Part shown: one piece after another, positions 1,050-62,384 of the stretch
How the letters are laid out: each line of letters begins with the position of its first letter
Numbering within the stretch: the first letter of the stretch is position 1
The notes under the pieces: generated by a model
Told to the model about the DNA's origin: nothing
The model's database searches: none
What the model saw: only the letters and a program-made list of their open reading frames with translations
Made by a program: the position numbers and the translations under genes
Assembly (NCBI GenBank): GCA_942492595.1
Contig: CALOFK010000003.1
Location: 677,554 to 741,553, forward strand
Source of the DNA: an uncultured Marinilabiliaceae bacterium
GTDB taxonomy: Bacteria > Bacteroidota > Bacteroidia > Bacteroidales > VadinHA17
Direction: 5' to 3'
DNA: 64,000 nucleotides

Positions 1050-4000
1050 TTAATTGGCTGTATCAGCTTCCAGGAAGCCATAATCATCCTGGCTACCGCG
1101 TTTTTTATTTCTCTCACCCCTTCGTGAGAATATAATATATACTACAGGCACCAGCACAAGAGTAACAAGAGTTGAAAATACTAATCCTCCTATAACTGCA
1201 ATACCCATTGGACTCCATATCTCTGCACCTTCACCAGTACTCAATGCCAGTGGCAGCATAGCAAGTATAGTAGTCAGTGAGGTCATTAAAACAGGGCGAA
1301 GTCTTGAACGTCCGGATACAGCAACAGCTTCATACAGTTCCATGCCCCTGTCTCGCATAAGGTTAATAAAGTCTACCAGCACGATGGCATTCTTTACCAC
1401 TATACCGATAAGCATAATTGCCCCTATTCCCGACACAAGACTGAAAGTAGTGTTTGTAACATACATTGCCAGTGCAACCCCGGAAAAAGCGAAAGGAATT
1501 GAAAACATAATTATAAATGGCATCCTGAGTGATTCGAACTGTGAGGCCATAACAAGGTAAACCAGTGCAAGACTCATTACCATTAATAGCATCAGGTCAC
1601 TCATTGCATCCATCATATCCTCAATCGCCCCGGATGATTCAACTGAAACTCCTGCGGGTATATCCATCTCTGCAATCTGACTGTCAATATCTTCAGCAAC
1701 GGCTGCAAGGGGTCTTTTGTGCGGAGTAGAAGAAACCGTTACAATCCGCTCCTTACGCTTATGTTCAATATTTGGAGGCGACCAGTATTCTTTAATCTCT
1801 GCTATCTCTCCAAGTCGTACCATCTGCCCCTGCATATTCCTTACCGGTATATTTTCGATATCGCTGATGGAGTTCCTGGAATCTTCATTATATCTTACTA
1901 TAACGTCATATTCATCCCCAAACTCTCTGAGCCTGGTAGCAAGCATCCCGTCGACACGATTCTTAATCGATGCCGAAACGGTAGCAGTATTAAGTCCGTG
2001 AAGACTCATCTTAGCCTGGTCGAGTACTATCTGGAGCTCAGGCTTGGAATCGTCACGACTAACCTGTATATCTGTAGCTCCTTCAATACGAGACATCCTG
2101 TCAGCCAGCTCATTTGCAACTTTATTTGTACTTACGATATCATAACCGTAGACTTCCATCTCAATATTATTCCCCATCATACCGCCCATCCCTGCATCTG
2201 AGGTACTCACCTGGTAATCTACAATTTCAGGAAATTGATCAAGCTCCTCCCTAAAGGCCTCGGCAATATCCCAGACCGATCTATCCCTCTCAGAGATATC
2301 ACTCAGGGAGAAAGTATATAAAATCGTATGAGTTCCGGTTGTGCTAAACATGGTAGCAAAGTTTGCCTCTTCATCTGTTCCGCTTGATGCTGAGATAAGC
2401 TCAATCTCAGGAAATCTCTCCATAAGGACCTTGTCAATCTTTGCAGCAAGTGCTTTTGTTTCGCTTACCCTGGTACCTGTCTGCAACTCAATAGTAGCAT
2501 TCATCGAAGACTGGTCGGCTTCAGGCATAAACTCCATACCAACCTGGGTCAATAATAGAATAGAACTAACAAATATTAAAAGGGAAACAATAACAGTAAA
2601 GGCCTTATGACGCAGAGCCCACCTGAGGGTACCTTCATAGAAGCCCTCGAACCTGTCAAGCCACTTCTTAATGGTATTATCATAACTGAGTCTTCTATTA
2701 CTCTTTTCCTTTTTCTCAAGCCTTAGCATAAGTGAACTAAGTGTAGGTGTAAGAGTAATAGCTGCTATTGTGGATGTTATGGTTGTTAAAGTAACAATCA
2801 TACCAAGCTGGCGGAACATGATTCCTGTTAATCCCTGTACAAAAGTAAGCGGGAAGAACACTGCCACAATTGTCAGTGTAGTTACTATAACAGCCAGCCA
2901 TACTTCGTTTGTCGCATAAATAGCTGCTTCCTTGGGCCGGCTTCCCTTCTCAATATGCTTTGTTATATTTTCAAGCACCACAATCGCGTCGTCGACTACC
3001 ATACCAATAGCAATTGAGAGCGAAGAAAGGGAGATAATATTTATTGAGTTTCCTGAAATAAACAGGTAAATAAATGCAACAATCAGTGAAATAGGTATTG
3101 TTACAATTACTATAAAGGTTGCCCTCCACCTTCCGAGGAAAAACAAAACAACCAGAATCACAAATATACCAGCGTACATCAGTGTACTGGTCAGGTTGCC
3201 TATGGAACCCTGGATAAACTCGGATGAATCGAAGATAGTATCAATCTTCACATCAGGAGGCAGGTCTGCCTTTAGCTCTTCAATGGCAGCACGCACTTCC
3301 TTGGCCACCTCTACAGTATTTCCCCCGGATTGTTTCTGAATATACATCCTTACACCCAGCTCCCCGTTGATTCTCTCTTCAGCCTTACTTTCCTTTTGCG
3401 AATCAACAATTTCGGCAACATCCTTGAGAAAAATAGTACTGCCATTAAAGCTGCCAACAACCAGATCCCTTAAAACATCACTCTCAGGAAATTCGCCTTC
3501 CACCCTCAAAGGATAGTCAAGTTCGCCCATCTCAAGAAAACCTGCAGGAGTATTCAGGTTTTCCATCCTCATAACATTTCCGATCTGCTCAACAGTCAGA
3601 TTATATGCTTCCATCTTAACCGGATCGACGTTAATATAAATCTCCCGACCCGGAGCACCTGCTATACCAACTGATGCTACACCTTCTATTCTGTTAAGGG
3701 GATTAACAATTTTTTCATCAAGTAGTTTTTCGAGTCCAGCAAAACTTTCATCTGCTGTAACAGAATAAAAGAGGATGGGCATCATGCTTGAGTTAAACTT
3801 CAGAAGAGTTGGATCTTCTGCATCTTCAGGAAAAAAACGACTTACAAAATCAAGATTATCCCTGATCTCGTTCGCAGCTTCATCCGTATTCGATCCCCAC
3901 TCAAACTCAAGGAAAAGGATTGAAGTGTTATCGCTTGATGTTGACGTAATCTCCTTTAAATTGCTGATTGTGCTTAGTGAGCTTTCAAGAGGCTCTGTAA

Positions 4001-4187
4001 CATTAGTTTCAATATCAGCAGCCGAGGCACCGGGATAGGATGTAAATACCGTAAGGAATGGAAATTCCATATCGGGATATAAATCCACCGGCAGCCTGGT
4101 AAGTGAATACAGGCCCATTACGATAAGTGCAACAAATATCAATATCGTGGTTAGTGGCCTTCTTACTGAATTACCGTATATACTCAT
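1050..4187 (-). CDS. RND efflux transporter permease (AcrB/HAE1-type inner-membrane pump)
   Basis: 1045 aa. It has the typical N-terminus MSIYGNSVRRPLTTILIF, two large periplasmic loops, a 12-TM layout and the conserved VVDDAIVVLENI segment. It sits in an operon with MFP and TolC-like genes. Confidence 0.95.
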   Translation of the reverse strand: MSIYGNSVRRPLTTILIFVALIVMGLYSLTRLPVDLYPDMEFPFLTVFTSYPGASAADIETNVTEPLESSLSTISNLKEITSTSSDNTSILFLEFEWGSNTDEAANEIRDNLDFVSRFFPEDAEDPTLLKFNSSMMPILFYSVTADESFAGLEKLLDEKIVNPLNRIEGVASVGIAGAPGREIYINVDPVKMEAYNLTVEQIGNVMRMENLNTPAGFLEMGELDYPLRVEGEFPESDVLRDLVVGSFNGSTIFLKDVAEIVDSQKESKAEERINGELGVRMYIQKQSGGNTVEVAKEVRAAIEELKADLPPDVKIDTIFDSSEFIQGSIGNLTSTLMYAGIFVILVVLFFLGRWRATFIVIVTIPISLIVAFIYLFISGNSINIISLSSLSIAIGMVVDDAIVVLENITKHIEKGSRPKEAAIYATNEVWLAVIVTTLTIVAVFFPLTFVQGLTGIMFRQLGMIVTLTTITSTIAAITLTPTLSSLMLRLEKKEKSNRRLSYDNTIKKWLDRFEGFYEGTLRWALRHKAFTVIVSLLIFVSSILLLTQVGMEFMPEADQSSMNATIELQTGTRVSETKALAAKIDKVLMERFPEIELISASSGTDEEANFATMFSTTGTHTILYTFSLSDISERDRSVWDIAEAFREELDQFPEIVDYQVSTSDAGMGGMMGNNIEMEVYGYDIVSTNKVANELADRMSRIEGATDIQVSRDDSKPELQIVLDQAKMSLHGLNTATVSASIKNRVDGMLATRLREFGDEYDVIVRYNEDSRNSISDIENIPVRNMQGQMVRLGEIAEIKEYWSPPNIEHKRKERIVTVSSTPHKRPLAAVAEDIDSQIAEMDIPAGVSVESSGAIEDMMDAMSDLMLLMVMSLALVYLVMASQFESLRMPFIIMFSIPFAFSGVALAMYVTNTTFSLVSGIGAIMLIGIVVKNAIVLVDFINLMRDRGMELYEAVAVSGRSRLRPVLMTSLTTILAMLPLALSTGEGAEIWSPMGIAVIGGLVFSTLVTLVLVPVVYIIFSRRGERNKKRGSQDDYGFLEADTAN

Positions 4188-4204
4188 TTTATTCTTTCTT
4201 TTCT

Positions 4205-5272
4205 TTAGTCAATTACTTTCACCTTATCACCATCCATAAGTTTGGTATGGCCCTCTGAAATAATTTTTGCTCCCTCTGCGATTTTTTCAGAAATAATTTC
4301 AACCATTTCATCGTATCGCTTACCTATGGTAACATTGTATCTCTTTGCTACGCCATTATTTTCAACAAAGACGTACCTGATATTCGTTCCTTCCTGCTGA
4401 AGAACGGTATTGGCCGGAACAATAAAAGATTCTTCTTCACCCACAAACATGGAGACCCTCGAAAACATTCCCGGTTTAAGTTTCTGGGAATTATTAGGAA
4501 CCTCAATTTCTACTTTGAAAGATCTCGTCATAGGATCTACTGTAGGGTAAACAAGTAATACTGTACCTGTAAACTCCTCATTAGCATATACATCTGCCTC
4601 AAGGGTGGCCTTCATCCCTTTCTTTAACATTGGATAATAGCTTTCTGAAATATTCAGAACTGCTTTCAGCGGATTAATCTGCATCAGTGTTAATACTGCT
4701 GCTTTTCCTGCCTGTGTATTTGGAGCGCCTGAATACATTTCGCCATTTTCAAAATATTTACCCGTAATAACTCCACCGAAAGGAGCATACATAATTGTAT
4801 TCTTCTCGAGGAAATCCAGGGAAGATAAGCTAACATCATACTGTGTTTTAAGCTGATCATAGGCCTGCTGTGTTATACTCCCTGTTTCAAGCAGGGCTTC
4901 CATCCTGTTAATGTCAACCTCCATGCTCTGTACCTGGATTTTAGTCTGGTGTAGCTGGGTCTGATCCATAAGGAAGAGTTTCTGTCCCTTGCTTACCCTG
5001 TCTCCAGGCTCTACGTAAATTCTTTCAATTCTTCCAGGTTGTGCAGGAGCCATATATACCTCTTCATAAGCCTCCAGGGTTGAATTATAATCAATAGTCC
5101 TGGATATACTGATCTTTTCGAGATCTATTACCCGAACCGGTACAACTGCTTTATCTACAGTTGCTAACCCGTCACCATCTGCAACTTTACCTTGCTTACC
5201 CTCAGGCGGATTGCACCCGGCCAGTATCAGCATAAATAATATTCCGATTGTTAATAATTTCTTGGTTCTCAT
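4205..5272 (-). CDS. RND efflux periplasmic adaptor (membrane fusion protein), lipoprotein
   Basis: 355 aa with a lipobox LAGC after the signal peptide. It has an HlyD/MFP-like coiled-coil plus beta-barrel pattern and is located between the TolC-like and RND genes. Confidence 0.9.
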   Translation of the reverse strand: MRTKKLLTIGILFMLILAGCNPPEGKQGKVADGDGLATVDKAVVPVRVIDLEKISISRTIDYNSTLEAYEEVYMAPAQPGRIERIYVEPGDRVSKGQKLFLMDQTQLHQTKIQVQSMEVDINRMEALLETGSITQQAYDQLKTQYDVSLSSLDFLEKNTIMYAPFGGVITGKYFENGEMYSGAPNTQAGKAAVLTLMQINPLKAVLNISESYYPMLKKGMKATLEADVYANEEFTGTVLLVYPTVDPMTRSFKVEIEVPNNSQKLKPGMFSRVSMFVGEEESFIVPANTVLQQEGTNIRYVFVENNGVAKRYNVTIGKRYDEMVEIISEKIAEGAKIISEGHTKLMDGDKVKVID

Positions 5273-5299
5273 TGTATATTATTTTATTATGTTTTATGA

Positions 5300-6649
5300 T
5301 TAGAGGTTGTTTAATAATTTATCAAGCTCGGTTTTTGAATTTAAAAGATTCATAAGAGCATTTATATAGTTATTCTCAGCATCCAGGTAATTACCGTTAG
5401 CCTGTGTCAGATCAAGGCTTGATGCTACACCCTGCTTATACTTATTCTCAACGCTTTTATATACTCTCATAGCCACCTTAACATTATCCCTCTGGCTCTG
5501 GAACTGTTCGTTAGCATTTATCAGGTTGTACCTGAGTTGTTTTTCCGTTATCAGAAGCTGGTCGCTTACCATCGATTTATTGGTTCTAACCTTCTCAAGA
5601 TCAAGTTGAGCCTTCTTTATTTTGGAGTATCTTTCACCACTTGCGAAAATAGGAATAGTCAATTGAACTCCAATCATTGAATTTGGAAACCATTGCATTT
5701 CGCTTAGCTCATTCCCCATACCATCCTTGTTGTACTGATAGAATCCTGCAAGAGTAGGTAGTACTGTCGATTTCTGCATTTTTACAGCCAGCTCCGACAT
5801 TTCTTCCTGGCTACCAAGCAGCCTGTAATCAATATTATCACGAAGATTAAAATTCTGACTGCCTAGAGTCATAATATCAATCTCCTTAAGCAGGTCATCA
5901 AGAGTCTGGCTCAGAACTATTTCAGTGTCGCGGTCAATTCCCAGTTGAAAACGTAACATATTATAACTCAGTTCCAGGTTCCTCTCCATAGATTTCCTGG
6001 TATTATCTACCATGCTGATATTGCTCGCCAATTGATCAACATCTGTCTCCTCTGCCATACCAACATTAAACATGGCCTTTGTGGATTTTAATGTTTCATC
6101 CAGGTTAGACCTGTTTCCATCGAGTATCTGTAGTGATTCCTCGGATATAAGGATTAAATAATAACTTGCTATTACAGAGCTTTTTGTATCAAGTTCTGTT
6201 TTTTCAAGGCTTTCTGCGCTCAGTCTCTCTGCCAGCTTTGCAGTCTGGACTCCCACAAAGTATGAAGCATTAAAAAGCAGCTGTGAAACCTGCACACCCC
6301 AGGATGCATTAAACTGTTGTCCAAACTGGACAGGGATATATGTTCCAGCCAATGCAGGATTGCCGGTTATTTCGCCTGGCAGAAGAGTAGTCCGGATCTT
6401 CAGATTATCATTAAACAATGCACTTCCATCCACTTTAGGCAAACCCCCCGAGATTGCTTCCCAGGTAGCCATCTTTGAAGCCTGTACGTCAATACCTGAA
6501 GCTCTTATCATTTTATTATGCTGAAGTGCATATGCCTGAGCTTCATCCAGTGAAAGGCTTAGTTTTTCTGTACTGTCCTGGGCAGACAGTAGCTGAAATG
6601 CAAAAAGCAGCAGTATAACTAATAGTTTACTTTTCATTATTATTTCCAT
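5300..6649 (-). CDS. TolC-family outer membrane efflux protein
   Basis: 449 aa with signal peptide ...LLSA/QD and two-repeat TolC-like heptad-rich halves. The likely true start is MKSKL at 6637. It overlaps the TetR gene end, indicating an operon. Confidence 0.9.
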   Translation of the reverse strand: MEIIMKSKLLVILLLFAFQLLSAQDSTEKLSLSLDEAQAYALQHNKMIRASGIDVQASKMATWEAISGGLPKVDGSALFNDNLKIRTTLLPGEITGNPALAGTYIPVQFGQQFNASWGVQVSQLLFNASYFVGVQTAKLAERLSAESLEKTELDTKSSVIASYYLILISEESLQILDGNRSNLDETLKSTKAMFNVGMAEETDVDQLASNISMVDNTRKSMERNLELSYNMLRFQLGIDRDTEIVLSQTLDDLLKEIDIMTLGSQNFNLRDNIDYRLLGSQEEMSELAVKMQKSTVLPTLAGFYQYNKDGMGNELSEMQWFPNSMIGVQLTIPIFASGERYSKIKKAQLDLEKVRTNKSMVSDQLLITEKQLRYNLINANEQFQSQRDNVKVAMRVYKSVENKYKQGVASSLDLTQANGNYLDAENNYINALMNLLNSKTELDKLLNNL

Positions 6650-20254: not shown

Positions 20255-20884
20255 ATGAATCACGACTATAATACCCAGAGAAAAAGGATGGCTCTGCCAG
20301 AATATGGCAGAAATGTTCAGAAGATGATCGATTATATCAAAACAATCGAAGACAGGGATGAAAGAAATAGGGCAGCCAGAACAATTATTAAGATTATGGG
20401 GAACCTAAACCCCCACCTGAGAGATTACGGGGATATCAATCATAAGTTGTGGGATCATATCTCAATTATCTCCCAGTTTGAACTCGATATTGATGCTCCA
20501 TACCCTCCTCCAGAAAAAGAAAAACTCAACGAAAAACCCCAGAGGGTCGAGTATAAAGAGGGTGAAGTTAAGTATCTTCACTATGGCAGGGTAGTTGAAA
20601 TGATGATTGATGTGGCAGTTGAAATGCCCGAAGACGATAAACGGGATTTTCTGGTTCTTCTTATTGCCAACCAGATGAAGAAGGCAGCTGCTGGCTGGAA
20701 CAGGGGTAATGTATCGGATGAGGTAATCTTTAAGGATATATCAGAGCTCTCAAAAAATAAGTTAAAGGTACCCGAAGGAACCAGGCTTATGGAAGTAAAG
20801 GACCTTATAGGACCTAAAAAGAAAAAGCAAACTAAGCAGCAGGGTGGAAAACAATCAAAGAAAAAATATCATAGCAGACACTAA
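20255..20884 (+). CDS. DUF4290-family protein (conserved partner of murA in Bacteroidota)
   Basis: It has the YNTQRKRMALPEYGRNVQKMIDYI pattern and a K-rich tail. The stop overlaps the murA start (TAATG). The likely ATG is at 20255; the track uses the TTG at 20225. Confidence 0.8.
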   Translation: MNHDYNTQRKRMALPEYGRNVQKMIDYIKTIEDRDERNRAARTIIKIMGNLNPHLRDYGDINHKLWDHISIISQFELDIDAPYPPPEKEKLNEKPQRVEYKEGEVKYLHYGRVVEMMIDVAVEMPEDDKRDFLVLLIANQMKKAAAGWNRGNVSDEVIFKDISELSKNKLKVPEGTRLMEVKDLIGPKKKKQTKQQGGKQSKKKYHSRH

Positions 20885-24369: not shown

Positions 24370-24430
24370 TATCTTTGTTGATTTAGGAACCAATATAGCA
24401 GAATTATACTAAATCTCCATTTCTCTTTCT

Positions 24431-24480
24431 CTACCTCCCTCACCTCACCCCATCACCCCATCACACCATTACCCAATCAT
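24431..24480. repeat. C/A-rich low-complexity tract with tandem ACCCCATC units (G-tracts on the minus strand)
   Basis: The sequence is CTACCTCCCTCACCTCACCCCATCACCCCATCACACCATTACCCAATCAT. C3-4 runs start at 24437, 24448, 24456 and 24472. Confidence 0.6.
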
Positions 24481-24517: not shown

Positions 24518-24545
24518 GTCTTTTGTCTTTTGTCCTTTGTCTTAC
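24518..24545 (+). repeat. Four tandem 7-bp units GTCTTTT/GTCCTTT upstream of the grpE promoter
   Basis: The sequence is GTCTTTTGTCTTTTGTCCTTTGTCTTAC. A further TTGTCC occurs at 24557-24562. Confidence 0.6.
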
Positions 24546-24574
24546 TTTCTGTCATTTTGTCCAAACATAATGCT

Positions 24575-24590
24575 TGGCAGAGTATTTGCT
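24575..24590 (+). promoter_or_regulatory. Sigma-54-type -24/-12 promoter element upstream of grpE-dnaJ
   Basis: TGGCAG(24575-80)-AGTAT-TTGCT(24586-90). It matches TGGCAC-N5-TTGCW at 10 of 11 positions with exact spacing. The ATG at 24624 is 34 nt downstream. Confidence 0.55.
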
Positions 24591-24623
24591 CCCTTGGAGT
24601 AGGTTTTTAAAAATATATTTTTG

Positions 24624-25277
24624 ATGGCTACGAGTAAAGATTCTAAGAAGGATAAAAAGAAGGCAGATAATAAAACAAAAGCTGCTGATATTAAGGATGT
24701 TAATGCAGACAACAAGGATGCTGGAAACAACGAAAATGCTGAGGACTCAGTTAATTCAGAACAGCAATCCTCTGCTAAGAAAAAAGATAAGGTAAAAGAG
24801 GACGGAATAAATACTGACAACAAAGCCGATACTGAGGAGAGCCTCGAGGAAAAATTGGCAGAAGCAAAGGATAAGTATTTACGCCTCTCTGCTGAATTCG
24901 ATAATTACAGGAAAAGAACACTTAAAGAGAAAATGGATCTTACCAAGTCGGCAGGTGAGTCTATAATAAATAACCTCCTGCCTGTTATGGATGATTTTGA
25001 CAGGGCACTGCAGCTTATGGAGGAAGTTAGCGATTGCAAAGCGATGAAAGATGGCATTGATCTGATATACTCAAAGTTCAGTGAATTTCTAAAGGGAAAC
25101 GGAGTCAAAGAAATAGATGCTCTAAACAAGGAATTTGACACCGACCTTCATGAGGCCATTACTAAAATTCCTGCGCCAGACAAAAAATCAAAAGGGAAAG
25201 TAGTGGATGTTATTCAAAAAGGCTATTATCTAAACGACAGGGTTATGAGGTATGCTAAAGTTGTGATAGGAGAATAG
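24624..25277 (+). CDS. grpE: Nucleotide exchange factor GrpE, with a long K/D/N-rich N-terminal extension
   Basis: It has the GrpE core LRLSAEFDNYRKRT...DPxxHEA-like DTDLHEAI...GYYLNDRVMRYAKVVIG. The ATG at 24624 immediately follows the TTG used by the track. Confidence 0.93.
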   Translation: MATSKDSKKDKKKADNKTKAADIKDVNADNKDAGNNENAEDSVNSEQQSSAKKKDKVKEDGINTDNKADTEESLEEKLAEAKDKYLRLSAEFDNYRKRTLKEKMDLTKSAGESIINNLLPVMDDFDRALQLMEEVSDCKAMKDGIDLIYSKFSEFLKGNGVKEIDALNKEFDTDLHEAITKIPAPDKKSKGKVVDVIQKGYYLNDRVMRYAKVVIGE

Positions 25278-25415: not shown

Positions 25416-26567
25416 ATGTCAAAAAGAGATTATTACGAAGTACTTGAAGTTTCAAAGAGTGCAAGCAAAGAAGAGATCAAAAAGGCTTACAGAAAGAAAG
25501 CACTTCAATATCATCCTGATAAGAATCCTGGAGATTCCGGGGCCGAGGATAAATTTAAGGAGGCAGCAGAAGCCTACGAAGTTCTTCGCGACGACAACAA
25601 GAGAGCACGGTACGACAGGTATGGTCATGCCGGCATGGGTAATGCCGGTGGATTTAGTGGAGGTGGAATGTCGATGGATGATATCTTCTCATCCTTTGGC
25701 GATATATTTGGGGATGCTTTTGGCGGTTTCGGAGGTTTCGGAGGATTTAGCGGAGGCAGGACAAGAGAAAGAGTAAATAAGGGATCAAACCTGAGAGTAA
25801 GGGTTAAACTTACCCTTGCAGAGGTAGCAAAAGGCGTAGAAAAGAAAATAAAAGTTAAAAAGTATGTCTCCTGTGAAGTCTGCGGAGGATCTGGTGCGGC
25901 TGACAGCAATAGCTTCAGCACATGCTCAACATGCCAGGGAGCAGGAAGGGTAACCCGGGTTACCAACACCATACTGGGACAAATGCAAAGTGCCTCAACC
26001 TGCCCTTCATGCGGAGGAGAAGGTAAAATTATCACCAAAAAATGTAATACCTGCTTTGGTGAAGGAATGATAAAAAAGGAAGAGGTCATAACTATTAAGA
26101 TTCCTGCCGGGGTTGGGAATGGCATGCAGCTTACCGTTAGCGGTAAAGGAAATGCGGCAAGAAGAGGAGGTATACCGGGCGATCTGCTTGTTATGATAGA
26201 CGAGATAGATGATGACAAGTTGATTAGAGAAGGAAACGACCTTATATATAATCTGTTTATTAGTGTACCCGATGCAATACTGGGCACCCAGGTTGAGATC
26301 CCGACAGTAGAAAACAGTGTTAAAATAAAGATAGAACCAGGCACTCAGGCAGGAAAAATTTTAAGACTCAGAGGTAAGGGAATACCTGATGTTAATGGCT
26401 ATGGAACAGGAGACCTGCTGGTGAACATTAATGTCTGGATTCCGAAGATCCTGACAGCTGAGGAACAGAAACTAATCGAGAAAATAAAAGGTGCCGAATC
26501 GTTTACACCCAAACCAGGTAAGGGAGATAAGGGGTTTTTTGATAGGATGAGATCATACTTTGAATAG
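25416..26567 (+). CDS. dnaJ: Molecular chaperone DnaJ
   Basis: It has a J domain with HPD (YHPDKNPGD), a G/F-rich region and four CxxCxGxG zinc-finger repeats. Confidence 0.97.
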
Positions 26568-26619
26568 ATATCACCTGTCAAAAATACTGATATACCGACA
26601 ATAATAAGCTATATATATA

Positions 26620-26660
26620 ATAGCCCTTACCAGAAGCACCCTGTAAGGGCTATTTATATT
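26620..26660 (+). terminator. Terminator hairpin after dnaJ
   Basis: Stem ATAGCCCTTAC (26620-26630) / GTAAGGGCTAT (26643-26653) followed by a T-rich TTATATT. Confidence 0.6.
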
Positions 26661-26694
26661 ATATTTACAGAAATAAACCTGAAAATTATAACTT

Positions 26695-27615
26695 ATGACA
26701 CTTTTAAGAGCTGATAATGTAAGAAAACAATACAGCAACCACCTGGCTCTTGATGATGTTTCTCTGGCGGTACCTAAGCAGAGTATATATGGACTGCTTG
26801 GTCCGAATGGCGCCGGAAAGACAACCCTCCTGAGAATAATTAACCAGATTACTGCTCCGGATAGTGGAAGTGTATTCCTGGACGGACATCCGCTTTCCTC
26901 TTCAGATCTGATAAATATCGGCTATCTTCCGGAAGAAAGAGGCCTTTATAAGAAAATGAAGGTAGGTGAGCAATCTATTTATCTGGCTATGTTAAAAGGT
27001 CTCTCCAAGAGTGAAGCTATATCAAAGCTGAAGGAGTGGTTTACAAAATTTGAGATAATCGACTGGTGGGACAAGAAAGTTGAAGAATTATCGAAGGGTA
27101 TGCAACAGAAGATACAATTTGTAACGACTGTTTTGCATGAGCCTAAGTTACTTATCTTCGATGAACCCTTCAGTGGATTTGATCCTATAAACGCTAATCT
27201 TCTTAAGAAGGAAATCCTCGACCTGCGTGACAGAGGTGCTACCATAATATTCTCAACCCATAATATGGCATCAGTCGAAGAGCTCTGCGATCATATTACT
27301 CTGATTGATAACTCCAAATCGATACTGGAAGGAAGCGTCGAAACCATCAGAAAAGAATGGGCTGCCAATGAATATATTATAGAGTTTGAAGGGAAAACCG
27401 ATATTCAGATTAATTCTGCTTATGAAATACTCTCTAACGAACAAAAAGAAGGCAAATCAAGCTTACATATAAAAGCTGCAGCAGTAAATAACGAAAATAA
27501 GATTATTGGCGATATGCTTAAAGCAGGTAATATTTTGTCTTTTAATCCTGCCCTACCCTCAATGAACGAGATATTCATAAGGGTTGTCGAGGCAAATGTA
27601 AAACCTTCGAAATAA
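26695..27615 (+). CDS. ABC transporter ATP-binding protein (ABC-2/NatA-like exporter subfamily)
   Basis: It has Walker A GPNGAGKTT, signature LSKGMQQK, Walker B LLIFDEPFSGFD and an H-loop STHNM. Confidence 0.92.
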   Translation: MTLLRADNVRKQYSNHLALDDVSLAVPKQSIYGLLGPNGAGKTTLLRIINQITAPDSGSVFLDGHPLSSSDLINIGYLPEERGLYKKMKVGEQSIYLAMLKGLSKSEAISKLKEWFTKFEIIDWWDKKVEELSKGMQQKIQFVTTVLHEPKLLIFDEPFSGFDPINANLLKKEILDLRDRGATIIFSTHNMASVEELCDHITLIDNSKSILEGSVETIRKEWAANEYIIEFEGKTDIQINSAYEILSNEQKEGKSSLHIKAAAVNNENKIIGDMLKAGNILSFNPALPSMNEIFIRVVEANVKPSK

Positions 27616-27629
27616 TAAAATCAAGTGTT

Positions 27630-28991
27630 ATGTCAAAGACTTCAATAATAATACAAAGAGAATATACCAGCAGGGTTAAGAAGAAATCATTTATTATAAT
27701 GACTATTCTCACTCCCCTGCTTTTTGCAGGATTAATGGTAATACCAGCTCTGATAATGGATAGCGATGATAAAGATTTTAAGAAAATCGCTGTTATAGAA
27801 GATGGTTCTGACCTCTTCACAAATGTTATTCCCAATACGGAATTCATGGAATTCGATTACCTGGGTGATGCTGGAATTGAAAGCCTGAAAGATACTTTTG
27901 AAGAAGCAGGTTATTACGGGATACTTTATATTTCTCCAACAGTCGTAAATGTTCCTAATGCTATCCAGCTTATATCGGCAAAGCAACCTCCCCTTAATGT
28001 TACCGAACATATAGAACGATCGCTTGAAAAATATATCGAAACCGAGAAGATGGCTCAGTACGAAATCGAAAATCTTGACGAGATACTAAAGAGCGTACAA
28101 ACTAATGTTAAGGTTCAGACAATTCGTATTAATGAAAGCGGAGAGACAAAGGAGACTAATACAGGTATAGCTATGGCCCTTGCATATATAGGTGCCTTTA
28201 TGATGTATATGATAGTGATTCTATATGGTGTGCAGGTTATGAGGGGTGTTTTTGAGGAAAAGAATAACCGGATTGTCGAGGTTATAATATCATCTGTTAA
28301 ACCGGTCCAGCTGATGATGGGGAAAATAATCGGTATTGCTCTGGTAGGGCTTACGCAGTTTGCAATCTGGATACTGCTTACCTTTGGAATAGTCTTCGTG
28401 GTAAAAGGACTTATAATACCTGAAAATAATACACAGCTAACAGAGATGGTTTCACAAAACGTGATGCAACAATCTCCTGAAGCGGCAGCTATTCTTGAAA
28501 ATTCAACTACGGGTAACATAAGCGATAACCCTGAGTTTGTAAGGCTGTATAACAATATTATGAATTTCAACTGGCCACTTGTAATTATATCATTTATCTT
28601 CTACTTTATTTTTGGATATTTGCTATATGCCTCAATATTTGCTGCAATAGGGTCTGCCGTTGACTCCGAAACAGATACACAGCAGTTTATGTTTCCTGTT
28701 ATGCTGCCAATAATACTGGGATTATTTATAGCCATGGGAACTATGCAAAATCCCGAAAGTTCACTTTCATTCTGGGGTTCCATGATCCCCTTTACATCAC
28801 CTATCGTGATGATGGCTCGCATACCCTTTGAAGTTCCTATATGGGAAATTGTTCTTTCAATAGCTATTCTTGCAGCAACCTTCTTCGGATTCGTATATCT
28901 TGCAGCTAAAATATACAGAATTGGAATACTGATGTACGGAAAGAAAGTGAGCTATAAGGAAATGATTAAATGGATCAGATATAAAGGATGA
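27630..28991 (+). CDS. ABC-2 type transporter permease (NatB-like, large extracytoplasmic loop after TM1)
   Basis: 453 aa with one N-terminal TM, a ~150-aa loop and then 5 clustered TMs. It lies 14 nt downstream of the ATPase gene. Confidence 0.85.
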   Translation: MSKTSIIIQREYTSRVKKKSFIIMTILTPLLFAGLMVIPALIMDSDDKDFKKIAVIEDGSDLFTNVIPNTEFMEFDYLGDAGIESLKDTFEEAGYYGILYISPTVVNVPNAIQLISAKQPPLNVTEHIERSLEKYIETEKMAQYEIENLDEILKSVQTNVKVQTIRINESGETKETNTGIAMALAYIGAFMMYMIVILYGVQVMRGVFEEKNNRIVEVIISSVKPVQLMMGKIIGIALVGLTQFAIWILLTFGIVFVVKGLIIPENNTQLTEMVSQNVMQQSPEAAAILENSTTGNISDNPEFVRLYNNIMNFNWPLVIISFIFYFIFGYLLYASIFAAIGSAVDSETDTQQFMFPVMLPIILGLFIAMGTMQNPESSLSFWGSMIPFTSPIVMMARIPFEVPIWEIVLSIAILAATFFGFVYLAAKIYRIGILMYGKKVSYKEMIKWIRYKG

Positions 28992-29045
28992 AATAGTTTA
29001 GTGGTTTAGAAACTAAACAGTTAAGCTTCTAAACCACTAAACCAA
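28992..29045. repeat. Perfect 16-bp inverted repeat built from GTTTAGNG octamers (hairpin/terminator after the ABC operon)
   Basis: GTTTAGTGGTTTAGAA (28996-29011) and TTCTAAACCACTAAAC (29027-29042) are separated by a 15-nt loop. The octamer is related to the tandem repeat at 31661-31691. Confidence 0.7.
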
Positions 29046-29063
29046 TAAACTACTAGAATACCC

Positions 29064-30233
29064 ATGGCAAAAGTACTTGTAATAGACGACGAAAAAGCAA
29101 TTAGGAATACTCTGAAAGACGTTCTCGAATATGAGAAACATATAGTAGATCTTGCACAGGATGGCATAGCAGGTCTTGATTTATTTGCTGAAGGTCACTA
29201 TGATGTAGTACTGTGCGATATAAAAATGGATAACATGGATGGAGTCGAAGTACTGGAAAAAATTCAGGAAACCACACATGATATACCTGTAATTATGATC
29301 TCCGGTCATGGAAATATTGATACTGCCGTTGATGCCATTAAAAAGGGAGCCTTCGATTTTCTTGAAAAACCCCTTGACCTTAACAGGCTGCTTATTACCA
29401 TGCGAAATGCAATGGAAAAATCAAACCTGATAAGCGAAACAAAGGTCCTGAAAAAGAAGGTAAGCAAGAAATATGAAATTATTGGGGAATCAGAGCCAAT
29501 TCTGAAAGTCAAAGAGATGATAGACCGTGTCGCACCCACAGAGGCACGAGTACTTATTACAGGTTCAAACGGAACGGGCAAGGAACTTGTTGCCCACCAG
29601 CTCCATGAGAAAAGCAGTCGATCAAAAGCCCCTTTTATAGAGGTTAACTGTGCAGCAATACCAGGTGAGTTAATTGAAAGCGAACTTTTCGGTCATGAAA
29701 AAGGTTCCTTCACCTCAGCACATAAACAGAGAATAGGAAAGTTTGAACAGGCTGACGGAGGGACAATATTCCTCGACGAAATAGGAGATATGAGCCTTTC
29801 AGCCCAGGCAAAGGTGCTTCGCGCGCTCCAGGAAAATAAGATATCCAGGGTGGGCTCAGATAAAGATATACAGGTAAACGTAAGAGTTATTGCAGCCACC
29901 AATAAAGACCTCAGTAAGGAAATTGAGAATAACAGCTTCAGGGAAGACCTTTATCACAGGTTAAGCGTTATACTGATCAATGTACCTGACCTGAAAGACC
30001 GAAAAATCGATATTCCCTTACTCGCAGATCATTTCAACGACATTATATGTTCCGAATATGGTATGACTAAGAAGATTATTACAAAGGATGCTATCAGCGA
30101 ACTTAAGAAAATTGAGTGGACCGGTAATATACGTGAATTCAGAAATGTTCTTGAAAGGCTTATTATCCTCTGCCAGGAAGAAATAAGGGGAAAAGATGTG
30201 CAGGCATTTGCCCATCCGGTATCAAAAAAATAG
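29064..30233 (+). CDS. Sigma-54-dependent enhancer-binding protein: receiver domain + AAA+ domain, no C-terminal HTH
   Basis: It has REC (VLVIDDE..., LCDIKMDNMDG), Walker A GSNGTGKE, the loop ELFGHEKGSFTSA (a GAFTGA variant), Walker B GGTIFLDEIG and sensor II GNIREFRNVLERL. The protein ends 17 aa later at residue 389. Confidence 0.9.
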   Translation: MAKVLVIDDEKAIRNTLKDVLEYEKHIVDLAQDGIAGLDLFAEGHYDVVLCDIKMDNMDGVEVLEKIQETTHDIPVIMISGHGNIDTAVDAIKKGAFDFLEKPLDLNRLLITMRNAMEKSNLISETKVLKKKVSKKYEIIGESEPILKVKEMIDRVAPTEARVLITGSNGTGKELVAHQLHEKSSRSKAPFIEVNCAAIPGELIESELFGHEKGSFTSAHKQRIGKFEQADGGTIFLDEIGDMSLSAQAKVLRALQENKISRVGSDKDIQVNVRVIAATNKDLSKEIENNSFREDLYHRLSVILINVPDLKDRKIDIPLLADHFNDIICSEYGMTKKIITKDAISELKKIEWTGNIREFRNVLERLIILCQEEIRGKDVQAFAHPVSKK

Positions 30234-46156: not shown

Positions 46157-46597
46157 TCACAAACTTTTTCTTTTACCTAATAATCTGGAAAATAGCGATC
46201 CTCTCCTGTTCAGTAACCTTTCCGTTTCCTTTTCACGCATCTCGTACAGACTCAGATCCTGCCAAATTTCACTCCATCCCCTAAATCCACCTACATTCTT
46301 ATCGTCGATAAATACATCCGCATTTACCTTCCTGCTTATCGATTCATTATAAACTTCTTCAGGGTAGTTCTTATTTATAGCATAAAACTCAATCCCTTTA
46401 GAGAGGCAATATTCAACTGCCTCATCCAATTCTTTCCCGGCCCTGAAGGTCCATAAGATTAACAGAGCTCCATTCTTCTGAAGTTCCTTCAGGGTCTCAA
46501 AAGCAAATAAAAGATCCTTTCCAATTTCAGGATACTCATGTTCAACAATAGTGCCATCAAAATCGACTGCTATTTTAAGATTCTTAAGGTGCTCCAT
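46157..46597 (-). CDS. Small HAD-like hydrolase-fold protein
   Basis: It has the N-terminal motif KIAVDFDGTIV (DxDGT) and a late FIDDK. It lies 1 nt upstream of the glutaminyl cyclase gene. Confidence 0.6.
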   Translation of the reverse strand: MEHLKNLKIAVDFDGTIVEHEYPEIGKDLLFAFETLKELQKNGALLILWTFRAGKELDEAVEYCLSKGIEFYAINKNYPEEVYNESISRKVNADVFIDDKNVGGFRGWSEIWQDLSLYEMREKETERLLNRRGSLFSRLLGKRKSL

Positions 46598-48489: not shown

Positions 48490-48699
48490 ACCGCGAACTT
48501 CGTGCTTAACTGTATAATTTGATAATATAATTTCAGATTGGAATAAGGCGAACTAAATATAAGAATAATCTACCAGATCGCAGGCGACAAAAACAAAGAA
48601 GTAAACACTGCAAAATGCATAATCCTAATGCCAAATTTGCACCTTGCCGAACAACAACATGTCGTTTTGTCAGTCTTTGACTCGACAACACTGCCATTA

Positions 48700-48715
48700 T
48701 GGCACCTTTGCTGCC
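48700..48715 (+). promoter_or_regulatory. Sigma-54-type -24/-12 element upstream of hsp20
   Basis: TGGCAC(48700-05)-CTTTG-CTGCC(48711-15). The -24 box is perfect and the -12 box retains TGC. The ATG at 48783 is 68 nt downstream. Confidence 0.4.
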
Positions 48716-48782
48716 CTGGTATACATATTGATATTAATAGTTTATAAAACAATAATAATTAATTAATAAGGAGGATAAAGTT

Positions 48783-49199
48783 ATGTTACCAATTAGAAGA
48801 ACTTACAAACCGATGTATATGTCGAACTTTTTTGACAATGATCTTGATACATTTTTCAAACCGGCAAGCACATTTAAGCCAGCAGTAAATGTAAGGGAAG
48901 ATGATAAAGCTTATAATATTGAACTGGCACTTCCTGGTATGTCGAAAGAAGATATTAAGATTGAGATAGAAAAGAATACTCTTATGATATCTTCTGAAAA
49001 AAATGAAAGCAAGGAAGAAGTTAGCGACTCTTATAACCTTAGGGAATTTGGCTACCAGTCATTTTGCAGAAACTTTACAATTCCGGAAAATGCAGATGCC
49101 GAGAAAATAAGTGCATCATACAAAGACGGAATACTGAATGTTGGGATTCCAAAGTCTCAAAAGGACACAAAAGTAAACAGACATATAAAGATATCGTAG
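48783..49199 (+). CDS. Hsp20/alpha-crystallin family small heat-shock protein
   Basis: It has the alpha-crystallin domain PAVNVREDDKAYNIELALPGMSKEDIKIEIEKNTLMIS...F.R.F.LP...I.A.Y.DGIL.V..PK. AAGGAGG lies 8 nt upstream of the ATG. Confidence 0.92.
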   Translation: MLPIRRTYKPMYMSNFFDNDLDTFFKPASTFKPAVNVREDDKAYNIELALPGMSKEDIKIEIEKNTLMISSEKNESKEEVSDSYNLREFGYQSFCRNFTIPENADAEKISASYKDGILNVGIPKSQKDTKVNRHIKIS

Positions 49200-52016: not shown

Positions 52017-54071
52017 TTAAGATTCCTTTTTCTTCTTCGCAGTTCGAGGAGCTTTCGTTGCAGCTTTTGGCTTCTCTTTTTCGGCAGCCTCTTTAGCAAT
52101 ATCGCCGGCTCTTTTACCAAATACCTTTTCAAGGTCTTCACTGAAGATCACTTCCCTTTCGAGCAAGAGATTTGCAAGTTCTTCGAGTCCTTTTCTGTTA
52201 TTCTTAAGCACCTCTTTAGCTCTTTCGTAAGACTGACTTACAATACGTTTTGCCTCAGCATCAATAAGTTCTGCTGTTTTTTCACTGTAAGGCTTTGTAA
52301 ATCCATATTCATTCTGACCTGAAGAATCGTAGAAGCTTAGATTACCTACTTCAGGACTCATTCCGAAATATGAAACCATAGCATATGCTTGCTTTGTAAC
52401 CTTCTCAAGATCGTTAAGTGCACCTGTAGATATTTTTCCAAACACTATTTCTTCAGAAGCTCTTCCCCCAAGTGCGTATGCCAGTTCGTCAAGAATCTGT
52501 TCCTGGGTGGTAAGAGATCTCTCCTCGGGAAGATACCATGCCGCTCCAAGTGCTCGGCCCCTGGGTATTATTGTTACTTTAACCAGCGGACTGGCATACT
52601 TTAACAACCAGCTTACCGTTGCATGACCAGCTTCATGAAAAGCAATAGTTTTCTTCTCCTCAATTGAAATAATCTTATTCTTTCTTTCCAGTCCACCAAT
52701 AATTCGATCTACAGCATCCAGAAAATCCTGCTTTCCTACCATTTTCTTATTCTTCCTGGCTGCTATCAAAGCAGCCTCATTGCACACATTAGCAATATCA
52801 GCACCTGAAAATCCGGGGGTCTGCTTGGCAATAAAATCAATATCAAAGTTCTTAGGCAACTTGATGGGCCTCAGGTGAACCTTAAAAATTTCTCTCCTCT
52901 CGTTCAGGTCAGGTAATTCCACATGAATCTGCCTGTCGAATCTGCCTGCTCTGAGCAAAGCCCTGTCGAGCACATCGGCCCTGTTTGTTGCTGCCAGAAT
53001 TATTACGCCAATATTTGTTCCGAACCCATCCATCTCGGTAAGTAACTGATTAAGGGTATTTTCCCTTTCGTCGTTAGCTCCAAAGTTAGCATTCCTTCCT
53101 CTGGCCCTTCCAACGGCGTCTATCTCATCAATAAATACTATACAGGGTGCCTTTTCTTTAGCCTGCTTAAAAAGGTCTCTTACACGTGAAGCGCCTACTC
53201 CAACAAACATTTCAACAAAATCAGAACCAGATATTGAGAAGAATGGAACATTGGCTTCACCGGCAACAGCTTTAGCCATTAATGTTTTACCTGTTCCGGG
53301 AGGTCCTACAAGTAATGCTCCCTTAGGTATTTTACCTCCCAGAGAAGTGTATTTTTTGGGGTTTTTAAGGAAATCGACAATCTCCATTATTTCAGTCTTT
53401 GCCTCTTCCAGTCCCGCTACGTCTTTAAAGTTAATTTTAACATTTGTATCCTTATCGAAGATCTGGGCTTTTGACTTGCCAACACTAAAAATATTACCAG
53501 CTCCACCGCCAGCACCTCCACCACCAGCCATTCTACGAAAGATAAACACCCAGATAAGTAAAATAATTACAAATGGCAGTATCCAGCCAAGGATATCTCC
53601 CATATAATTCCTTCTTGTTTCATAAGAAGGATGTATCCTCTCAGACTGTGAATAATCGGCCCTATCCTGTACCTCGGATAATTGCTTGTCGAATAGCTCA
53701 ACAGATGCGATATTATAAATAAAATTAGGTCCTACCTGACCCATACTAAAGGGATTGCTCCCTCCTGAGGCTTCAGGGTATCTTCCGGATTCTACAGCCT
53801 CCGGTTTAAGATATAGTTCTGCCTTATCCTTATTTACCACTACTATCCTTTCGATGTCACGATTATTAATCATCATCTCGACATCACCCCATTCCATAGA
53901 TTTAGTAAGGTTTCTGCCTCCGAAAAGAAGGTTTATCCCTATAAAACCAAGGGCCAGGGCTGCCAGAATCCAGTTTAAATTGAATTTCGGCTTACCATCC
54001 TTGCCATCCTTACCATCCTTTGGACCATTCTTTCCCAGCCTGGGATTATTATTATTACTCTTCTCTGCCAT
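52017..54071 (-). CDS. ftsH: ATP-dependent zinc metalloprotease FtsH
   Basis: It has Walker A GPPGTGKT, Walker [10 protein letters not shown], the SRH region and the zinc site HEAGHA. Length is 684 aa. Confidence 0.97.
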
Positions 54072-54083
54072 TTCTTAAAACTC

Positions 54084-54461
54084 TTAATTTTTTTTACTGT
54101 CAACAATATTTTCAATCTCCGCATCTGCCCAGAGTCCTTCAAGGTTATAAAACCTTCTATACTCTTCCATAAAGATATGAACAATAACATTTCCATAATC
54201 AAGTAAAACCCAGAAGCAATTATCCAATCCTTCCTTATGTATGGGGCGTTCACCACTGAGCGACTTAACCTTTGCAATCACTGATTCTGCAATAGAATCT
54301 ACCTGTGTTCCGGATTGTGCATCAGTAATAATAAAGTAATCACAAACTGAACTCTCCAGTTTGCCCATCCCTACTTTTACAACATTGTTCCCGCTCTTTT
54401 CAAATATCCCTTCAATTATATTCTCTACAAGCTGCGTAGTATCATCTTTCTTTTTGCTCAT
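54084..54461 (-). CDS. rsfS: Ribosome silencing factor RsfS (Iojap family)
   Basis: 125 aa with the pattern CDYFIITDAQSGTQVDSIAESV...WVLLDYGNVIVHIF..E.R.FY.LE.LW. Confidence 0.9.
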   Translation of the reverse strand: MSKKKDDTTQLVENIIEGIFEKSGNNVVKVGMGKLESSVCDYFIITDAQSGTQVDSIAESVIAKVKSLSGERPIHKEGLDNCFWVLLDYGNVIVHIFMEEYRRFYNLEGLWADAEIENIVDSKKN

Positions 54462-54545
54462 CTAGCTTCTTACTGTATTATAGAAAAAATTCATCAACGA
54501 AAGTACAAACATTTATTATTACTTTTGCTGAGCTATTATCTTTTT

Positions 54546-54561
54546 TACAATTACAGTGCCA
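54546..54561 (-). promoter_or_regulatory. Sigma-54-like -24/-12 element upstream of rsfS-ftsH operon (imperfect -12)
   Basis: The minus strand reads TGGCAC-TGTAA-TTGTA. The -24 box is perfect, but the -12 box has GT instead of the conserved GC. It is 85 nt upstream of the rsfS ATG at 54461. Confidence 0.3.
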
Positions 54562-54626
54562 TTCTGTACGCCAGGATGTATTAGAATAAATAGCAAATCT
54601 ATTTTGGTGATAAACAGCTGAATAAC

Positions 54627-62295: not shown

Positions 62296-62311
62296 AGCAA
62301 TTGTTGTGCCA
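62296..62311 (-). promoter_or_regulatory. Sigma-54-type -24/-12 promoter element upstream of lon
   Basis: The minus strand reads TGGCAC(62311-06)-AACAA-TTGCT(62300-296), a perfect match to TGGCAC-N5-TTGCW. It is 74 nt upstream of the lon ATG at 62222 and downstream of the L31 terminator. Confidence 0.6.
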
Positions 62312-62384
62312 TCAGCTTATCTACCTGATAAACTATAAATTAAAAGAAATTGGCAGGACAATATGACCTGCTATATCAAATAGA

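Follow-up and report, generated by a model that had tools for sequence, protein, structure and literature searches.

The closest described counterpart of the promoters considered here comes from Flavobacterium psychrophilum, in which Guérin et al. (2021) mapped RNA 5' ends and assigned the promoter motif SM4 to sigma-54 (PMC9723704). SM4 promoters were located before groES-groEL, lon, dnaK, grpE-dnaJ, htpG, clpB, and skp, and ftsH and secA were placed in the same co-expression cluster, B254 (PMC9723704). Mutagenesis was confined to the remFG-sprCDBF promoter, at which changes to conserved SM4 bases lowered activity, and the sigma-A consensus in Bacteroidota was given as a -7 TAnnTTTG box with a -33 TTTG (PMC9723704). 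A survey published in 2025, using a PSSM (position-specific scoring matrix), reported enrichment of sigma-54 promoters before the genes for GroEL/ES, IbpA, GrpE, DnaJ, DnaK, HtpG, ClpB, and Lon in Flavobacteriia, Bacteroidia, and Cytophagia as well as in Planctomycetota (PMC12316311). The survey describes grpE and groES as sigma-54-dependent in Bacteroides thetaiotaomicron, a statement whose primary source could not be identified (PMC12316311); sigma-54 heat-shock promoters are not discussed in the B. thetaiotaomicron transcriptome papers. Here we describe the sigma-54-type element that precedes the grpE-dnaJ operon, together with related sites before lon, hsp20, and rsfS-ftsH, in a 64,000-nt stretch of DNA from an uncultured Marinilabiliaceae bacterium (contig CALOFK010000003.1, positions 677,554 to 741,553; hereafter the window). 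To our knowledge, Bacteroidota lack RpoH and HrcA. The sensing of heat or proteotoxic stress in this phylum is mechanistically unsolved, as published work ends at the sigma-54-type motif before the chaperone genes.

An original prediction, made from the letters of the window, had proposed four sigma-54 sites ahead of proteostasis operons and had held this architecture to be undescribed for Bacteroidota. Given the work of Guérin et al. and the 2025 survey, the latter claim was wrong: the regulon itself is already published (PMC9723704), as is its enrichment at the level of classes (PMC12316311). The features of the grpE-dnaJ locus are as follows, with gene identities here and below taken from NCBIfam and Pfam.

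24574-24590, + strand: grpE-dnaJ core promoter, a sigma-54-type -24/-12 element, TTGGCAGagtatTTGCT; predicted transcription start site (TSS) about 24600-24603
24624-25277, + strand: grpE (NCBIfam GrpE models, best E = 5.8e-41)
25416-26567, + strand: dnaJ (TIGR02349 DnaJ_bact, 435 bits against a cutoff of 377)
26613-26665, + strand: hairpin with a U-rich tail 3' of dnaJ, a likely intrinsic terminator

Inspection of the plus strand at the grpE site revealed cTTGGCAGagtatTTGCTccc, in which TGGCAG occupies positions 24575-24580 and TTGCT positions 24586-24590, with 33 nt separating the motif from the grpE ATG at 24624. The site thus reads TGGCAG-N5-TTGCT, with GG and (T)GC 10 bp apart as in the sigma-54 consensus TGGCAC-N5-TTGCW, and this part of the original prediction was borne out. 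The hairpin that follows dnaJ has a minimum free energy of -19.7 kcal/mol (z = -5.1), equalled by none of 200 shuffles; given its strength and its U-rich tail, grpE-dnaJ is probably a transcription unit of its own, closed by this structure. For GrpE and RsfS, the best relatives were found in metagenome-assembled genomes (MAGs) labelled Marinilabiliaceae or Bacteroidales, at 66-76% identity, which places the window in a Marinilabiliales-like member of the Bacteroidia. Farther upstream of grpE, at 24430-24475, lies a C-rich reiterated tract, cctcacctcaccccatcaccccatcacaccat, the place of which is taken by different short tandem repeats in several orthologous loci (for example, CTTAACGCC in L054 and L060).

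Conservation was assessed in 80 orthologous grpE loci drawn from species-representative genomes. TGGCA-N6-TTG was present within 260 nt upstream of grpE in 71 of them, against a background of 0.03 per 320 nt in the same loci, and the conserved form was TTGGCA-R-N3-W-TTTG-H. In the orthologs, the position of the canonical -12 cytosine was occupied by A (33 cases), T (20), C (16), or G (1). The lineage consensus, as judged from these alignments, is TTGGCA-N5-TTTG-H, in which the canonical -12 cytosine appears to be dispensable. Because this base varies, the textbook TTGC of the window is incidental, so that the original description of a canonical site stands with respect to a conserved sigma-54-type promoter and falls with respect to the canonical -12 element. 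The same relaxed -12 element is carried by the SM4 strings given for groES (TTGGCAtaattTCTGA), clpB (TTGGAAtaacaATTGA), and lon (ATGGCAcaatcCTTGA) in Table S2 of the F. psychrophilum study (PMC9723704). This departure from the textbook consensus matters when genomes of this group are scanned with a proteobacterial matrix.

The Table S2 strings also provided the offset from which start sites were predicted. The TSS corresponds to position 51 of each 61-nt string, as checked by the 5' ends of the Rfp1 and Rfp36 RNAs, which puts the G of TTG at approximately -14, compared with the approximately -5 expected of a sigma-A -7 box, and the T of TGGCA at approximately -27. Predicted start sites were accordingly set 25 to 28 nt past the T of TGGCA.

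An independent ranking was obtained with a position weight matrix built solely from 14 published TSS-mapped SM4 promoters of F. psychrophilum and applied to 127,964 window positions. The grpE site ranked 1 and the lon site ranked 2, with the rsfS site at 31 and the hsp20 site, at the coordinates originally proposed, at 29. Pattern counts in the window gave a similar division. TGGCA-N6-TTGC was found five times against 0.48 expected, a number reached in none of 100 shuffles. By contrast, TGGCAC-N5-TTGCT with up to two mismatches, the looseness required to take in the hsp20 and rsfS sites of the original prediction, was found 13 times against 13.25 expected. The hsp20 (48700) and rsfS sites are therefore not significant from the sequence alone, and the window statistics support only those of grpE and lon. 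Because the two-mismatch counts were uninformative and both sites ranked low, conservation tests were needed and were used in their place.

The remaining TGGCA-N6-TTG matches in the window (at 20584, 45222, 46543, 56799, and 61010) were all intragenic, and no intergenic, correctly oriented site was found before any gene other than grpE-dnaJ, lon, hsp20, and rsfS-ftsH, in agreement with the restriction to proteostasis genes first proposed. A minus-strand TGGCAC at 46543-46556, near the start of an open reading frame (ORF) and ranked 4 by the SM4 matrix, was considered and rejected, as it codes for DFDGTIVEH of a HAD-type protein; Asp-Gly-Thr codons are thus able to mimic TGGCAC. The CIRCE operator (TTAGCACTC-N9-GAGTGCTAA) had no match in the window even with three mismatches allowed, in agreement with the original prediction, in which none had been seen.

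The features of the lon and rsfS-ftsH loci, both on the minus strand, are listed below.

62296-62312, - strand: putative lon promoter, a sigma-54-type -24/-12 element, aTGGCACaacaaTTGCT; predicted TSS about 62284
59766-62222, - strand: lon (TIGR00763, 900.9 bits)
62356-62368, - strand: tentative box-like sequence, GGTCATATTGTCC, with one mismatch to the grpE box described below and located 45 nt upstream of the lon -24 element
54546-54562, - strand: sigma-54-type -24/-12 element before rsfS-ftsH, aTGGCACtgtaaTTGTA; predicted TSS about 54534
52017-54461, - strand: rsfS (54084-54461; TIGR00090) and ftsH (52017-54071; TIGR01241)
54498-54505, - strand: sigma-A-type -7 box (TAnnTTTG), TACTTTCG in the window and TACTTTTG in some orthologs

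The lon site at 62296-62311 is TGGCACaacaaTTGCT, a perfect match to TGGCAC-N5-TTGCT as first described, and lies 73 nt before the ATG; the lon gene of F. psychrophilum likewise has a mapped SM4 promoter (PMC9723704). The rsfS-ftsH site at 54546-54561, TGGCACtgtaaTTGTA, fits TGGCA-N6-TTG. In an alignment of eight orthologous rsfS upstream regions, from loci whose RsfS proteins are 61-85% identical, TGGCA-N5-ATTG was invariant within an otherwise scrambled spacer, so that the site proposed originally is real despite its low rank. The rsfS-ftsH-cdsA gene order was retained throughout these loci (L201-L208). The alignment contains a second conserved island, GTACTTT(C/T)G, approximately 45 nt downstream of the sigma-54-type element. 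As this island matches the sigma-A -7 box, rsfS-ftsH appears from its sequence to be served by a sigma-54-type (stress) and a sigma-A housekeeping promoter in tandem, an arrangement that would be apt for a protease both essential and stress-induced. The rsfS-ftsH site is a small addition to the regulon, since the published F. psychrophilum list contains no ftsH promoter. In one 4.38-Mb MAG contig (L205, positions 3393-5551), the ftsH following rsfS is annotated in three fragments (65, 135, and 475 amino acids), which probably reflects a frameshift or assembly error and not biology.

The fourth site, before hsp20, was found to be displaced relative to its original placement.

48783-49199, + strand: hsp20, small heat-shock protein (NCBIfam Hsp18/Hsp20 models; syntenic orthologs)
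48716-48731, + strand: hsp20 sigma-54-type -24/-12 element, cTGGTAtacataTTGA; predicted TSS about 48744
48692-48704, + strand: hsp20 proximal box, TGCCATTATGGCA, which includes the TGGCA first read as a -24 element
48660-48672, + strand: distal box of hsp20, TGTCGTTTTGTCA, whose start is 32 bp upstream of that of the proximal box

The letters reported at 48700-48715 are present, but the palindrome TGCCATTATGGCA includes the TGGCAC at 48700 as its right arm. The window was aligned with four syntenic hsp20 orthologs (64-83% protein identity), which read TGTCATTTTGTCA, TGCCATTATGGCA, TGCCATATTGACC, or TGTCATTATGTCA at the proximal box and have lost the GG in three of four cases. The conserved element instead lies 17 nt downstream, where (C/T)GGTA-N6-TTGA at 48717-48731 was found in all five sequences, with GGTA.A.A.ATTGA invariant. 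It begins exactly 13 nt past the 12-nt core of the proximal palindrome, and all five share one spacing, namely box, 32 bp, box, 25 bp, and TGGTA. The mapped SM4 promoters of F. psychrophilum include some with -24 elements of the TTGGTA type (PMC9723704). Of the four sites originally proposed, those of grpE, lon, and rsfS-ftsH were thus correctly located and that of hsp20 was not. Judged on sequence and conservation, the grpE site is a member of a Bacteroidota-wide sigma-54 proteostasis regulon whose putative members in the window also include lon, hsp20, and rsfS-ftsH.

A palindrome-like box resembling that of hsp20 was also present upstream of the grpE promoter.

24550-24562, + strand: palindrome-like box upstream of grpE, TGTCATTTTGTCC, at approximately -52 to -40 from the predicted TSS

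The 12-nt core of the grpE box ends 13 nt before the T of TGGCA, and the box was retained in nearly all grpE orthologs. The gap between box and TGGCA was 13 nt in 160 cases, 14 nt in 21, and 12 nt in 5; that is, 186 of 189 fell within 13 ± 1 nt, leaving 3 outliers, and the same-strand downstream control yielded 2 matches. As computed from the coordinates, the centre of the box lies approximately 20.5 bp from the GG, or about two helical turns. In the window, TGNCANNTTGTC has one exact copy, at the grpE box, and TGNCANNNTGNCA has a single exact occurrence, at the hsp20 proximal box. With one mismatch allowed, the box showed no enrichment across the whole window (14 matches against 12.6 expected). 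Only three of the box-like matches were intergenic, and these were confined to three heat-shock promoter regions. The lon promoter has no box at the canonical offset, its box-like copy being non-canonically spaced at 45 nt, and the distal hsp20 copy is likewise non-canonically placed. No box was found at the canonical offset before rsfS in the window.

The genes associated with the combination of box and promoter were identified by scanning metagenome contigs, without reference to genes, for TGNCANNTTGTC-N13-TGGCA-N5-TTTG. At least 120 matching stretches were obtained; the first ORF downstream of each was taken, the ORFs were clustered, and one representative of each cluster was annotated with Pfam. 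Among the matches listed, the downstream ORFs were distributed as follows.

GrpE, 73
ClpB, 10
GroES, 8
HtpG, 6
Hsp20, 4
Thioredoxin, 3
DnaK, 2
ClpP, 1
Other, 5

A chaperone, protease, or thioredoxin gene therefore followed in 107 of the 112 metagenome matches listed. The excess of GrpE is expected, because the scan pattern was derived from grpE promoters, and the informative subset is the 39 non-GrpE matches listed, 34 of which were to chaperones, proteases, or thioredoxin. In the non-GrpE promoters the box was a true palindrome, TGACA-N3-TGTCA, with the final A present in 25 of 31; its general form is TGnCA-N3-TGnCA, 13 bp in length and often TGACAATTTGTCA. Tandem boxes 31-32 bp apart were seen in three of four independent Hsp20 promoters and were rare at grpE. 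In F. psychrophilum, the right arm of the box can be recognized at an equal 13-nt offset before clpB (TTTGTC) and groES (TGTCA), and it was not seen in the readable non-chaperone SM4 promoters of that organism. A description of the box was not found in the literature by literal sequence or by topic, which is not proof of novelty; the palindromic box is possibly the sole new item at the grpE locus.

Several further observations concern the box and its surroundings. TTTGTC is reiterated across 24518-24562 (cTTTTGTC TTTTGTCC TTTGTC ... TGTCATTTTGTCC), with TTTTGTCC forming an exact direct repeat at 24528 and 24555, and these copies could be additional half-sites for a box-binding protein. In a contig labelled Bacteroides fragilis (L033, positions 2800-2935), the box lies 68 nt upstream of TGGCA rather than 13, and the box architecture may thus be different in Bacteroides proper.

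The window also contains a gene for a candidate activator of these promoters, 3.8 kb downstream.

29064-30233, + strand: NtrC-type sigma-54 activator (REC, AAA+, and lid domains)

The Pfam search confirmed the activator originally proposed here, identifying Response_reg at residues 4-110, Sigma54_activat at 139-305 (E = 2e-71), and AAA_lid_14 at 311-374. The protein ends at residue 389, and HTH_8 was absent in this search. Having no helix-turn-helix (HTH) domain, the activator is without a canonical DNA-binding domain with which to read the box, and it was rejected as the box binder. Among solved structures, its best relatives are the NtrC1 and NtrC4 REC-AAA+ modules, and a protein of this kind could supply ATPase activity from solution. 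The order grpE, dnaJ, ABC ATPase, ABC-2 permease, activator recurred in five metagenomic loci, with GrpE identity down to ~40%. Synteny of the activator was found in 3 of 14 sufficiently long loci and in 2 truncated loci, and the full-length orthologs are of ~388 amino acids. As only 3 of the 14 long loci retain it, the association of activator and grpE is suggestive but not established.

The genes between dnaJ and the activator form a linkage of their own. Of ~146 dnaJ-containing loci, 71 have an ABC ATPase gene after dnaJ, mostly followed in turn by an ABC-2 permease gene (26695-28991 in the window), a conserved and unexplained association of the grpE-dnaJ operon with an ABC exporter. The 72-nt spacer between permease and activator contains an inverted repeat (28996-29042) with 23-nt arms that are 91% complementary and separated by 1 nt; it is a possible terminator, attenuator, or regulator site. 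A 432-amino acid ORF after the activator matched no family in NCBIfam or Pfam and showed no conserved linkage.

Taken with the conservation at orthologous positions and the top SM4 rank, the nearby sigma-54 activator gene supports the RpoN reading of the chaperone and protease promoters that was originally put forward, and the segment at 24574-24590 is very probably the -24/-12 core promoter from which sigma-54 (RpoN) RNA polymerase would transcribe grpE-dnaJ. A number of observations weigh against this assignment. The -12 GC is usually near-invariant in sigma-54 promoters, and here it is TG followed by A, T, or C among the orthologs. The conserved hsp20 element (48716-48731) scored only 5.7 with the SM4 matrix (rank 164). 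The loop through which the activator would contact sigma-54 reads GSFTSA instead of GAFTGA, and the protein has no DNA-binding domain. No rpoN was identified by NCBIfam or Pfam among the ORFs of the window, and we infer its presence in the genome from the sigma-54 activator gene alone. A distal enhancer 70-150 bp upstream, which is typical of sigma-54 promoters and not obligatory, was not found, the sole conserved upstream element being the box, and a regulator site whose centre is ~20 bp from the -24 element would be unusually near for an enhancer. Finally, no rpoN or activator mutant examined for Bacteroidota chaperone genes was found in the accessible literature.

The variable -12 base is also compatible with a sigma-A promoter, in which the -33 and -7 elements would be provided by the TTTG of the box and by ATTTG at 24584-24588, respectively, and TTGGCA would be a regulator site between them. 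Both places have TTTG as their conserved core, the copies lying 25 nt apart, inside the reported -33/-7 range. The TA of TAnnTTTG is, however, absent at grpE, and the corresponding positions (6-7) are not conserved in the orthologs, whereas TGGCA is retained in 71 of 80 loci, well above expectation for a spacer. The mapped start sites of F. psychrophilum lie ~13 nt past TTG and not ~5 nt, and its non-chaperone SM4 promoters carry the same -24/-12 motif with neither box nor -33 TTTG. At rsfS, moreover, a separate and well-formed TAnnTTTG box is found farther downstream. With no conserved TA and an unfitting TSS offset, the sigma-A reading of the grpE element was rejected as highly improbable. 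A scan of the grpE upstream region for sigma-70 consensus promoters returned nothing relevant, with a tool that does not model Bacteroidota promoters.

The box has a right arm (TTGTCA or TTGGCA) that resembles the -24 hexamer, and in hsp20 a box arm indeed reads TGGCA, which raises the alternative that TTGGCA-N5-TTTG and the box together form a composite operator for a heat-shock transcription factor, with transcription from some other non-sigma-54 promoter or by an alternative sigma factor. The degenerate -12 GC would be in keeping with such an operator, and sigma-54 dependence of these genes is without genetic proof. This alternative is nevertheless improbable, as the spacing and identity of the motif fit sigma-54 promoters and as members lacking the box exist in rsfS, lon, and the non-chaperone SM4 promoters of F. 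psychrophilum. In that organism, mutation of conserved SM4 bases reduced the activity of the remFG promoter (PMC9723704). Between the motif and the grpE ATG, comparison of the orthologs revealed no further conserved promoter-like element. That the matches might be functionless chance occurrences in AT-rich intergenic DNA could be argued from the two-mismatch count, which equals expectation (13 against 13.25), and from the original hsp20 site, which is indeed not conserved. Ranks 1 and 2 with the independent SM4 matrix speak against it, and conservation at grpE (71 of 80 against 0.03 expected), together with rsfS and hsp20 cores that are invariant within scrambled spacers, has already refuted it.

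Under the favoured sigma-54 reading, the holoenzyme would bind TTGGCA (-24) and TTTG(C) (-12) to form a closed complex, which an AAA+ activator would then remodel and open, the candidate being the response regulator without a DNA-binding domain, acting from solution. Transcription would begin near 24600-24603 and stop at the hairpin after dnaJ. Members of the chaperone type (grpE and hsp20 here; groES, dnaK, clpB, htpG, trx, and clpP elsewhere) additionally carry one or two 13-bp palindromes, the proximal one lying on the same helix face with its end 13 nt from the -24 element, and a dimeric protein bound there would subject this subset to specific control. The box would thus most likely be the binding site of a dimeric regulator that confers heat-shock specificity. 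Its position, clear of the core promoter and on the same helical face, fits a contact-dependent role; the bound protein may be a tether or helper of the activator, or may instead block it until the onset of stress is sensed. We propose, tentatively, that an undescribed 13-bp cis-element and its dimeric regulator, as a proximal tether or co-activator or as an anti-activator, may define the heat-shock branch of the Bacteroidota sigma-54 regulon, giving stress specificity where the AAA+ activator has no DNA-binding domain. Because the box is short, sharply defined, positioned to the base pair, and almost exclusive to chaperone genes, it is a useful lead and a direct handle on the missing regulator.

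The window locus resembles the SM4 promoters and cluster B254 of F. psychrophilum in phylum, gene set, and motif, TTGGCA-N5-(T)TTG with a variable -12 C base. It differs in lying in Marinilabiliales-like Bacteroidia and not in Flavobacteriia, and in that its start sites are predicted where those of F. psychrophilum were mapped. The hsp20 and rsfS-ftsH promoters are missing from the published SM4 list, the authors of which call the motif a typical TGGCACGnnnnTTGC and do not report the upstream palindromic box. The 2025 survey, being a purely statistical PSSM analysis, is without locus anatomy, the upstream box, or FtsH (PMC12316311). No new principle emerges from the locus, which carries the regulon into a Marinilabiliales-like lineage and contributes conserved sites at rsfS-ftsH and hsp20. 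Precedents in which sigma-54 and an NtrC-type response regulator drive heat-shock or proteostasis genes include the control of lonD by HsfA/HsfB in Myxococcus xanthus and the sigma-54 promoters of ibpB and pspA in Escherichia coli. Those are single operons of Proteobacteria or Myxococcota, operating alongside RpoH, whereas sigma-54 appears here to be the principal route for the chaperone set as a whole, with no RpoH or HrcA system visible.

CtcC of Chlamydia and FlgR of Helicobacter consist of REC and AAA+ domains, end after the lid, and, with no enhancer site, activate from solution. This architecture is shared, as known here from sequence, by the protein encoded at 29064-30233, which differs in its GSFTSA loop. 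The conservation of a box beside the promoters, when the activator has no DNA-binding domain, implies that another protein must read it. The tandem dyads of hsp20, approximately three helical turns apart, recall the paired NtrC enhancer sites of glnAp2, although the box lies ~20 bp from the -24 element and usual enhancers lie 70-150 bp away. Unlike classic repressor operators (HrcA-CIRCE, HspR-HAIR, and CtsR), the box is clear of the core promoter. It is nonetheless like CIRCE in being a short palindrome that marks heat-shock genes across a phylum, with an unrelated sequence; if the proposal made here is true, the box and its regulator would be the functional counterpart in Bacteroidota of CIRCE/HrcA or RpoH control.

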